The notes under the pieces: model-generated
Databases searched by the model: none
What the model was told of the DNA's origin: nothing
Seen by the model: the letters and a program-made list of their open reading frames with translations, nothing else
In this document: positions 10,214-10,965 of the stretch, piece by piece
Layout: every line of letters starts with the position of its first letter
How positions within the stretch are numbered: the first letter of the stretch is position 1
NCBI GenBank assembly: GCA_937900435.1
Contig: CALCEG010000010.1
Coordinates: 1-43,223, forward strand
Direction: 5' to 3'
Length of the DNA: 43,223 bases
From: an uncultured Alphaproteobacteria bacterium
Lineage (GTDB): Bacteria > Pseudomonadota > Alphaproteobacteria > Rs-D84
Program-made: the position numbers and the translations under genes

Positions 10214-10516
10214 CAATATACGAATGGACCGAGATGTTGGCCTAAGAATCTTAGATATGTTGGAGTGAACCAAAAGACCACTATAACGTTTTTTATTTAA
10301 TCACTTTTGTAAAGCATCATACCCCTTTGTAAACCTTTGTAATCTTTTGTAATCTTTCGCAGCGACTTTCTGTGTATTCCCCTTTATAATTCATAGTGTA
10401 AAGCAAGCAAAAGGATTACGCATGTAAACATATTTTCTATGTCCGAAATTATGTCTAGAATATGTAAATATATCTGCTAAAACTGATAAATTTGGACAAA
10501 ATTAGAAATTTTTACA

Positions 10517-10543
10517 AAATAAAAAATCCCGGAACACCGGGAA
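10517..10543 (-). terminator. Intrinsic terminator after tRNA-3'-end unit 1
   Basis: Minus-strand read: ...CUACCAGAAUU-UCCCGG-UGUU-CCGGGA-UUUUUUAUUUU. Confidence 0.55.
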
Positions 10544-10547
10544 ATTC

Positions 10548-10690
10548 TGGTAGCAGCGGAGGGATTGTGTATTCCCACTCATTTTATTCGTGGGCCCCTT
10601 TCCAAATCGCAACGGTTTCGCTGCGTTACACTTGCAAAACCTGCTATTTTGTCGGACCCTGGGGTCCTCTTCGTCCTTTACTAACCAAAA
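10548..10690 (-). ncRNA. Candidate tRNA-like RNA or att remnant, unit 1
   Basis: GC-rich relative to its flanks. Ends in AAUCCCUCCGCUGCUACCA followed by a terminator. GCAGCG 60 nt upstream can pair with CGCUGC, closing a 77-nt tRNA-sized molecule. Internal hairpins GGACCC-CA-GGGUCC, CGCAGCG-AAAC-CGUUGCG and CCCAC...GUGGG. No promoter of its own is seen. Confidence 0.3.
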
Positions 10691-10715
10691 TTAAAACCGG
10701 GATAAACCCGGTTTG
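10686..10715 (-). terminator. Intrinsic terminator after tRNA-3'-end unit 2
   Basis: Minus-strand read: ...CUACCAGAAUUC-AAACCGGG-UUUAU-CCCGGUUU-UAAUUUU. Confidence 0.55.
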
Positions 10716-10720
10716 AATTC

Positions 10721-10856
10721 TGGTAGCAGCGGAGGGATTGATTCCGCTGCGCTTCATTCCCCTTGGCAAATTTGCGTTGCAAACCGGCATACTCCCGTCT
10801 GCCTTTTGCCTGCGGGTCGGACCCCTGCTGGTTGTCCTTCATCCCGACGCACAGAA
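10721..10856 (-). ncRNA. Candidate tRNA-like RNA or att remnant, unit 2
   Basis: Ends in GCAGCGG-AAUCAAUCCCU-CCGCUGC-UACCA (a 7-bp minihelix with an NCCA tail) followed by a terminator. Upstream is a three-way junction: GGCAAA / GGCA..UGCC / UUUGC-AAC-GCAAA / UUUGCC. No promoter of its own is seen. Confidence 0.3.
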
Positions 10857-10883
10857 TAAAAAAACGACCCATCGGGTCGTTTG
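10857..10883 (-). terminator. Intrinsic terminator of the tRNA(CAT) gene
   Basis: Minus-strand read: ACCAGAAUAAAC-AAACGACCC-GAU-GGGUCGUUU-UUUUAUU. Confidence 0.65.
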
Positions 10884-10890
10884 TTTATTC

Positions 10891-10965
10891 TGGTAGCAGC
10901 GGAGGGATTCGGACCCCCGACCAAAGGATTATGATTCCTCTGCTCTACCACTGAGCTACGCTGCC
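10891..10965 (-). tRNA. tRNA with CAT anticodon (elongator Met or lysidine-modified Ile2; not an initiator)
   Basis: Manual cloverleaf: GGCAGCG-TA-GCTC-AGTGGTA-GAGC-A-GAGGA-ATCATAA-TCCTT-TGGTC-GGGGG-TCCGAAT-CCCTC-CGCTGCT-A-CCA. CCA is encoded. The anticodon stem lacks the initiator GGG/CCC. Confidence 0.9.

Follow-up and report, generated by a model that had tools for sequence, protein, structure and literature searches.

Tandem units with a tRNA-derived 3' end beside tRNA-Met(CAU) in an uncultured alphaproteobacterium: candidate protein-less cassettes with a structured fold

Why should the 3' end of an intact tRNA gene be repeated, at intervals of about 170 bp, directly behind that gene? The question is raised by a 43,223-nt stretch of DNA of an uncultured gut alphaproteobacterium (Candidatus Enterousia; GenBank assembly GCA_937900435.1, contig CALCEG010000010.1), which is referred to below, at its full length, as the window, and in which a tRNA-Met(CAU) gene is followed by two GC-rich units that each end in a copy of its tail. 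It needs to be mentioned that tRNA genes are the classic landing sites of genomic islands, and repeats located there are usually read as passive scars. An earlier sequence-only reading of the window left two options: (a) serial attachment scars or integrase-less mini-elements accreted at the tRNA, and (b) a family of tRNA-like small RNAs sharing one acceptor end. We estimate a probability of roughly 0.55 for a reading that takes something from both, namely that the units are shufflable, protein-less mini-cassettes encoding a tRNA-tailed structured RNA, located at the tRNA-proximal end of a defence-gene island. This reading rests on the anatomy of the units, their conservation, covariation on the sense strand, the occurrence at two tRNAs with matching tails, and turnover between strains at the boundaries of the repeat.

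The repeated tRNA end and the anatomy of the units

The tRNA-Met(CAU) gene from which the array starts (Table 1) was recognised by both ARAGORN and Rfam, as the sequence-only reading had it. The 23-mer ATTCTGGTAGCAGCGGAGGGATT noted there occurs in the window in three exact copies, at 10544, 10717 and 10887 of the plus strand; allowing up to 3 mismatches brought up no further copy in the window, and as 100 shuffles gave 0 matches, 0 are expected by chance. On the minus strand the 23-mer covers A58 of the T-loop, the 3' strands of the T-stem and the acceptor stem, A73, the CCA and the bases GAAU. The description of the block as running from the T-loop to the CCA plus GAAU is correct for the copies in the window but does not extend to other loci, where the conserved core is limited to the 19 nt from A58 to A76 and the four trailer bases, which belong to the next module, are GAAT, AAAT, AAGA or AAGT.

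In a species-representative genome collection, from which loci were taken as 8-kb blocks, the 23-mer matched 51 stretches, all of them from Candidatus Enterousia or other Alphaproteobacteria metagenome-assembled genomes (MAGs) of animal guts. These related loci are given L-numbers below (W being the window), and all were read on the tRNA strand. Every copy sits at the tRNA-Met locus or at its islands, and the 23-mer is thus not a dispersed generic repeat, an outcome that the sequence-only reading had allowed for. At least 26 of the 51 loci carry 1-3 units with a spacing of 174-188 bp; in the remaining loci the tRNA is followed directly by the terminator named Tc in Table 1.

When the 165 nt located 5' of every core were compared, a common order became apparent. 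A unit of about 170 bp consists of a trailer with a terminator, a leader (of which there are three types), a hairpin called P1, a body of 80-93 nt, a GGGAAU.. element and the 19-nt core AAUCCCUCCGCUGCUACCA. In the units at tRNA-Met, P1 has the form GGACC-CCAG-GGUCC (it is longer in family B), and its 3' strand repeats positions ~51-57 of the tRNA. Three body families were distinguished: B, present in at least 14 loci, C, and D, which was seen in other loci only; the window contains B and C. The claim that the interiors of the units are unrelated has to be withdrawn, as the interiors in the window share the 5' hairpin and the 3' part and match each other as profiles: in nhmmer searches C and D matched over the full length (E ~1e-15), and B more weakly. 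Moreover, the two window interiors recur in many species, and the bodies of B, C and D do so at 78-96% identity. Judging from this recurrence, the units are not random scars or deletion remnants of large islands.

Behind every core copy, on the minus strand, lies a separate terminator-like hairpin with a U-run, no two of the three being alike, and the units are GC-rich relative to their surroundings (0.46-0.59, in comparison to ~0.3 in the flanks); both features had been pointed out before and were found again here. Ta is located within a 19-bp palindrome that extends into the CCA tail, and in other loci its module precedes bodies of type B or C, whereas Tc is the commonest terminator immediately after the last core in other species. 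The 18-19-bp palindromes around two of the three terminator hairpins take in the ACCAGAAU tail.

The units found no counterpart in the collections searched. With gathering as well as permissive thresholds, Rfam reported only tRNAs, both in the window (no family for B or C) and in units of type D and of type E, which is introduced below. There was no match of viral contigs to the 23-mer or to a unit-type junction, and no match of the units in phage and plasmid collections by blastn. Nine viral-contig matches to the 19-mer are ordinary prophage att sites in the homologous tRNA of other alphaproteobacteria, with identity beginning at the anticodon or variable loop. A metagenome scan by the unit-junction pattern gave 27 loci, 4 of them relevant. 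Two known kinds of RNA were considered and rejected: the hammerhead, as leader and P1 compared by eye with its core did not fit and no Rfam ribozyme match was obtained, and tmRNA or YrlA, as ARAGORN found no tmRNA and Rfam gave no match even at E <= 10.

A 3'-end direct repeat had also been proposed for the initiator tRNA at 26858. We did not find it; the sole near match, with 2 mismatches, lies 13.8 kb away (13034-13052), in or at the start of an open reading frame (ORF), and was judged to be due to chance. Neither did tRNA-Cys show a 3'-end repeat in the window, and the ORF that follows it encodes a RecF-like protein, not an integrase.

Table 1. Coordinates of the array and of the adjoining features in the window
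Feature	Position	Strand	Basis or remark
tRNA-Met(CAU), intact	10891-10965	minus	ARAGORN; Rfam tRNA, 66.3 bits
Candidate tRNA promoter, TTGCAT + 15-nt spacer + TATAAT	10978-11004	minus	inferred from sequence; motif kept 5' of the tRNA in other loci
Core copy 1, AAUCCCUCCGCUGCUACCA, tRNA A58-A76	10891-10909	minus	repeat search, tRNA annotation
Trailer GAAU and terminator Ta (stem 10862-10882, then U-run)	10852-10890	minus	terminator prediction
Unit B, leader and body	10740-10851	minus	P1 hairpin 10819-10837, then three-way junction, variable hairpin, GCAGCGG strand
Core copy 2, 19 nt, 3' end of unit B	10721-10739	minus	repeat search
Trailer GAAU and terminator Tb (stem 10694-10714)	10691-10720	minus	inside 18-bp palindrome 10684-10724
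Unit C, leader and body	10567-10690	minus	P1 10654-10667; P2 GGUUUUGC with GCGAAACC; variable hairpin P3 CCCAC/GUGGG
Core copy 3, 19 nt, 3' end of unit C	10548-10566	minus	repeat search
Trailer GAAU and terminator Tc (stem 10527-10542)	10527-10547	minus	terminator prediction
Conserved terminal module, AT-rich	10295-10526	minus	83-91% identity in at least 10 other species
Strain-variable island: units, terminal module, 947-aa and 309-aa ORFs, truncated arm-like remnant (~6300-6410)	6150-10887		conspecific comparison

The fold of the bodies and the units behind tRNA-Tyr(GUA)

RNAalifold applied to D alone gave P1, a helix P2 interrupted by a tandem G.A internal loop, two further helices, one acceptor-like (GUAGCG/CGCUGC) and one T-stem-like (AGGGR/UCCCU), and a stacked variable hairpin with a GAAA loop. 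A joint MAFFT alignment of C and D turned out to be misaligned and was replaced by a covariance-model alignment. In order to avoid circularity, the covariance model was made from six D sequences only, and all loci were searched with it. This model scores C units at 36-66 bits, and in the window it matched 10548-10686 with 55.2 bits (E = 1e-14). In the resulting alignment of 21 sequences, 89% of the cells at paired positions are standard pairs, in comparison to 36-48% when the 3' partners are slid by 1-3 columns. In P2, 98.5% of the cells are paired and 8 of the 10 pairs change on both sides, the helix being GGUUUUGC/GCGAAACC in C, GGU-GA-AAAC/GUUU-GA-ACC in D and AUC-GA-AAAC/GUUU-GA-GAU in E. 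The variable hairpin covaries as well, and that of B has three covarying pairs, with exchanges of U-A to C-G and of C-G to G-C. In the well-supported helices we counted 42 G.U cells and no A.C cell. Of 35 units, 33 reach a lower minimum free energy on the sense strand than on the antisense strand (mean z -2.9 and -1.6, respectively); this advantage is clearest for C and D, and the fold is strand-specific for C, D and E.

Two structural claims of the sequence-only reading can be judged against this fold. The 7-bp GCAGCGG/CCGCUGC hairpin with a UACCA tail described for its second unit is present in the minimum-free-energy fold, whereas the 77-nt closure of its first unit by a 5' GCAGCG competes with the better-supported P2. 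At the distal end of two islands (L031 1920-1940; L039 2150-2172) we noticed a variant core, AATCCCTCGGGCAGCTACCA, which turns the U.U mismatch in the GUUGCG/CGCUGC pairing of C into U-A; this is a single event.

The model built from D also matched L030:82-210 and L041:1284-1410, in both cases directly behind tRNA-Tyr(GUA). This unit, named E, was found in both (2 of 2) loci holding a tRNA-Tyr(GUA) gene. Its leader, P1, P2 and terminator are homologous to those of the Met units, and its 3' end, AAUCCAGCCACUCCCACCA, equals A58-A76 of tRNA-Tyr. P1 of E reads GAACC-ACA-GGUUC-GA, the 3' strand being the T-loop half GGUUCGA of tRNA-Tyr and the 5' strand compensating for it. In the Met units the same site reads GGUCCGA, a copy of the unusual UCCGA in the T-loop of tRNA-Met, which is UCCGAAU with C at position 55. 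Every unit thus contains two pieces of its own tRNA, corresponding to positions ~51-57 and 58-76. These pieces are adjacent in the tRNA and are split by the body in the unit, without target duplication in B, C, D or E. In three loci a body interrupts, at this very point, a partial tRNA from which nothing else is missing downstream of the anticodon loop; the body is C in L031, B in L055 and D in L048. The motif CGAATCC (T-loop and stem) is common to tRNA-Met and tRNA-Tyr; tRNA-Thr (15 copies), tRNA-Gly, tRNA-Cys and tRNA-fMet have neither CGAATCC nor units.

A separate observation concerns position 55 itself, where U (pseudouridine 55) is near-universal. The UCCGA loop with C55 occurs in the clade in tRNA-Met(CAU) and in tRNA-Thr(GGU) (window 10909-10925; L020, L023 and others), and the Tyr, Gly, Cys and fMet tRNAs of the clade have UUCGA or UUCAA.

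Cassette turnover and the weighing of the readings

Contigs of the same species were traced by looking up the UDG protein; an exact-protein look-up of the PagL-like ORF gave no match. Three near-identical strains, with flanks 97-98% identical, have three different arrays: tRNA-B-C (W), tRNA-C (L090) and tRNA-D-B with B partly deleted (L088). The UDG protein of L090 is 99% identical and both of its flanks are 97.6-98.2% identical to the window, its array consisting of tRNA-Tb-C only; what is absent is precisely the Ta-B-core cassette, with an exact boundary at the repeat. The presence or absence of single units in sister strains, which the sequence-only reading had suggested looking for, was thus seen directly. 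L088 has an identical UDG protein and is 97.4-97.9% identical over 6.5 kb, and it contains D and an internally deleted B together with different cargo. Its homology to the window is lost at the edge of the tRNA core (10887) and picks up again at ~6149; that of L090 does so at 6414. Trailer-plus-terminator modules appear interchangeable after any core (tRNA, B, C or D), leaders are re-assorted with bodies at P1, and L024 contains a tandem C-C duplicate in which the two C units are 1 base apart.

When species are compared, identity amounts to 87-96% for C, 78-91% for B and 83-90% for the terminal module, in comparison to 65-74% for the PagL gene, 75-79% for the UDG gene and 71-86% for the spacer upstream of the tRNA. 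Between conspecific strains the relation is reversed, with 93.7% identity in the array and 98% in the flanks. Conservation is decoupled from the host genome in these comparisons, which points to a shared, exchanged pool of cassettes under constraint.

We thus propose the following scenario. The body would encode a structured RNA of a new family, whose subtypes would be B, C and D at tRNA-Met and E at tRNA-Tyr. Read on the tRNA strand, this RNA would end in a mimic of the acceptor and T-arm with NCCA, the terminator of the next cassette stopping it. Because each cassette would bring a terminator for whatever lies upstream, the tRNA would stay intact. Cassettes would be gained, lost, duplicated and re-assorted by recombination in the core and in the T-loop half within P1. 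Transcription may start at the tRNA promoter and read through, or it may start at a weak extended -10 within the leader; a possible element of this kind, TGGTATAGT, was read by eye in one leader type, and predicted terminators flank the units. The tRNA tail may serve 3'-end maturation or mimicry, and the mover, if there is any, might be an integrase acting in trans, or homologous or microhomology exchange. Option (a) of the sequence-only reading survives in this scenario insofar as whole units are gained, lost and swapped at the 19-nt core between strains and species; a version in which they are random scars or deletion remnants of large islands is contradicted by the recurrence of the same three body families. 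Option (b) captures a part of the picture as well, being supported by the covariation and the strand-specific fold.

Several observations speak against mini-cassettes encoding an RNA. Units are absent from about half of the loci, so an encoded RNA would not be essential. B folds about equally well on either strand, variation within families is low, and as the compensatory changes lie mostly between subfamilies, they represent few independent events, in an alignment that is biased towards the structure of its own model. Support for the acceptor-like helix is poor in C, where 69% of its cells are paired, and alternative pairings are available, for example of GGUCC with GGRCC or of the leader with the core. 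The space that separates a terminator from the next body is too short to hold a canonical promoter, and a promoter scan found none there.

Nor was a recombinase encountered. Among the 36 ORFs of the window scanned with Pfam there was none, and no match to Phage_integrase, in line with the earlier statement that the window lacks an integrase. With Pfam, 60 island proteins yielded no integrase among the 25 families listed of 51 matched, and a phmmer search with a Pfam-validated XerD probe, run on every ORF of 80 aa or longer across ~440 kb of related loci, gave no match; as the loci are 8-kb blocks, an integrase may be encoded farther away in the genome.

The main rival is a DNA-level attachment module, which may fold as single-stranded DNA. 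The units would then be relics, attP-only or resembling cis-mobilisable elements (CIME), of serial insertion by a tyrosine integrase, and the body would be an integrase/Xis arm region or a folded single-strand site of the attC/CTX type and no RNA gene. This same tRNA serves as a classical site of integration, multi-kb islands here and prophages in other alphaproteobacteria are bounded by partial tRNAs that begin at the anticodon loop, and a direct repeat of the tRNA 3' end flanks the inserted DNA with the tRNA left intact, as expected of integrase-mediated integration. Cassette boundaries at the core, gain and loss of whole units, one terminator per unit (as in attP regions that restore tRNA genes) and the arm-site-like direct repeats of the terminal module are all in agreement with this idea, and folded single-stranded DNA sites also predict a strand-specific fold. 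However, no integrase was found in the window or in ~440 kb of related loci, the bodies are GC-rich and multi-hairpin in an AT-rich genome, with a GAAA tetraloop and a conserved tandem G.A loop showing compensatory changes, and they are devoid of repeated arm-type motifs and more conserved than coding genes. Circles of 170 bp lie near the lower size limit for recombination substrates, and it would be left unexplained why P1 copies the T-loop half of its own tRNA. We consider such relics rather unlikely. A narrower model, in which only the 80-93-nt body is inserted, as a non-autonomous mobile-DNA- or intron-like piece, at G57/A58 in the T-loop of Met- or Tyr-like tRNAs, the units being displaced tRNA 3' fragments that were hit, appears less probable still. 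It would account for the exactly contiguous tRNA flanks without target duplication in B, C, D and E, for the restriction to tRNAs with CGAATCC and its absence from Thr, Gly, Cys and fMet, and for filled and empty pairs among the partial tRNAs, L012 having the arm with an intact partial tRNA and other loci the same with C (L031), B (L055) or D (L048) inserted at one point; yet these hybrids are equally explained as recombinants at the shared GGGTCCGA. Leaders and terminators are homologous between Met and Tyr units too, and thus more than the body is shared; the ends of the body differ between subfamilies, and no transposase, HUH enzyme or reverse transcriptase was seen in the loci. An empty P1-core site, lacking the body, was searched for and not found, which counts against this insertion model and against RNA-encoding cassettes alike.

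A guide-type RNA, with a scaffold and a 3' 19-nt 'spacer' homing an RNA-guided mobile element to the tRNA, would also be expected to have a structured part, then a target-identical 3' segment that changes with the tRNA, then a terminator, and integrase-less cargo does pile up beside the target. We nevertheless regard it as very improbable: no gene for Cas12k, TnpB, IscB, a Tn7-like or an IS110-type protein was seen in the window or the loci, the insertions abut the match exactly instead of lying at a fixed distance from it, transposon ends and target-site duplications are missing, and several scaffolds share one 'spacer' in one array. That the array is a chance repeat or an artefact of MAG assembly is hardly credible, given that 0 chance matches are expected and that the same organisation with consistent unit families occurs in dozens of independent NCBI, ENA and JGI assemblies, even if assemblers evidently struggle here: contig ends at cores are common, and contig L089 ends precisely at ...CUACCAGAAU. 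We also considered the complement of the core as a retroviral-type primer-binding site, which would fit the boundary at A58; we discarded the idea, as the orientation is not the right one and a reverse transcriptase was not seen.

Returning to mini-cassettes with an RNA payload, our guess at a function is that the RNA mimics, or acts as a decoy of, the acceptor/T-arm of its own tRNA, a guess prompted by the defence-gene neighbourhood. A more far-reaching version, which we put forward only tentatively and consider doubtful as a whole, would see here a new class of protein-less mobile cassettes whose structured-RNA payload copies two adjacent pieces of a host tRNA, and which seed and punctuate integrase-free defence islands at tRNAs with CGAATCC, the RNA acting in targeting or recombination or as a decoy for factors by which the acceptor/T-arm of that tRNA is recognised.

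The island, its cargo and comparable systems

The region between the tRNA core and ~6150 is a strain-variable island (Table 1), because the flanks of L088 and L090 match the window and the content between them differs. Its ORFs of 947 aa (7370-10213) and 309 aa (6462-7391) have no Pfam match, and other genes occupy this place in L088 and L090. The terminal module, which follows the last core, is more conserved than the neighbouring genes. TTTACAT and GACATA each occur in it twice as direct repeats. In addition, it contains a TATAAA/TATAAT box, a set of four TTACAAAG-like repeats spaced ~10 bp apart (10300-10350), and, at ~10353-10420, a decayed remnant of a partial tRNA or C-type unit with a decayed core. 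The fourth, decayed copy announced by the sequence-only reading is real: it reads GGGGAATACACAGAAAGTCGCTGCG on the minus strand (~10357-10381), within a conserved module of 250 bp (10295-10543). The module could provide arm sites, a promoter or a small RNA.

In related loci, partial-tRNA repeats running from the anticodon loop to the CCA bound islands of 1-7 kb at tRNA-Met, and they are preceded by a conserved arm, TTTTACATATwCTrGACATAGAAA ... GAAAGTGGCGG. Islands bounded either by these partial tRNAs or by the cores of the units have a cargo that includes DarT with Macro, Fic, DNA methylases, AAA_15/AAA_21 ATPases, a 1507-aa helicase and Cys-rich proteins, and in the species with the UDG homologue P0117 it differs by sample between the same ends. 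One such island, of 3.5 kb, in L012 runs from tRNA to partial tRNA without an integrase and carries a DarTG-like pair of DarT (a single-stranded-DNA ADP-ribosyltransferase) and Macro (3081-4795).

Cis-mobilisable elements of the CIME type belong, like tycheposons, to the tRNA-linked genomic islands, a class marked by direct repeats of partial tRNAs, by accretion in tandem and by remnants without an integrase. The closest parallel in architecture is offered by the tycheposons of Prochlorococcus (bioRxiv 10.1101/2020.12.28.424599), in which the island also begins at the 3' end of an intact tRNA, a CAU tRNA, tRNA 3' repeats part the segments, variability is highest beside the tRNA, the cargo is of the defence or adaptive kind, and integrase-less remnants occur. 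What differs here from tycheposons and other tRNA islands is the repeat, 19 nt from A58 instead of the typical ~40 nt, the geneless units of 170-190 bp, their conserved and covarying interior fold, the second tRNA segment in P1, and the fact that no integrase was found in any locus. Integron attC cassette arrays resemble the present ones in having promoter-less and recombinase-less cassettes, a site kept more in fold than in sequence, a strand-specific fold, and an order and number that vary between strains; however, IntI, attI and Pc are missing here, there are several hairpins and not one imperfect palindrome with R''/L''/L'/R' boxes, the invariant part is a tRNA tail, the platform is a tRNA gene, and many cassettes are empty.

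Among RNAs, the YrlA bacterial Y RNAs (PMC4201824), the tRNA-like domain of tmRNA and viral 3' tRNA-like structures also have a T-arm/acceptor-like 3' module ending in NCCA, and their genes may be in tandem. However, the units gave no Rfam match to YrlA or tmRNA at E <= 10, their last 19 nt are those of one particular tRNA next to them and vary along with it, neither rsr/Ro nor rtcB was seen nearby, and they do not occur in all genomes of the clade. The omega-RNA of TnpB, Cas12 crRNAs and the tRNA-homing guides of type V-K CRISPR-associated transposons share with them a 5' scaffold followed by ~19-23 nt identical to a DNA target, beside mobile cargo, but here no effector gene was seen, the junction lies at the match itself, and there are no transposon ends.

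The units are a lineage-restricted, new variation on tRNA-linked island architecture, with a candidate new RNA family. What would elsewhere pass for scars has here a conserved, covarying, strand-specific fold that is fitted to each of two tRNAs and is subject to turnover among near-identical strains. Should the units be transcribed, they would be a new family of tRNA-tailed RNAs in a gut symbiont with a reduced genome; should they be recombination modules, they would form an integron-like cassette system that has a tRNA gene as its base. In both cases the result would inform how integrase-less defence islands are assembled.

Outside the island the window is an ordinary chromosome, with GyrB, UDG-family, PagL-like, ThrRS, LpxC/LpxK, RecF and VirB4-like proteins; the last of these is an 811-aa ORF (30914-33349) with a CagE/TrbE/VirB4 domain (type IV secretion ATPase) in an otherwise housekeeping stretch. 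Some further repeats were noticed in the related loci. A module ..ACAAAAACACCGCCCnnnnGGGCGGTGGGGATTATCG opens cassettes that code for Cys-rich proteins on the opposite strand (L016 6960-7000, L039 650-700, L088 6950-6975; also L048 345-400, 880-930 and 1985-2010) and cuts units at fixed points, either after CCGCTG of the core or after GTTTGAACC of D. A palindromic insert of ~45 nt (TCCTACTTCGCCACC...GTAGGA-like), resembling a miniature repeat element, lies right after ACCA-type ends, namely after a B core (L050 7086-7127) and between tRNA-Gly and tRNA-Tyr (L041 1109-1160). Finally, L054 (5263-5545) shows the partial-tRNA repeats in mirror arrangement: first comes a 5' half of tRNA-Met that keeps its native promoter, next ~165 nt of arm-like sequence, and last a complete tRNA-Met.

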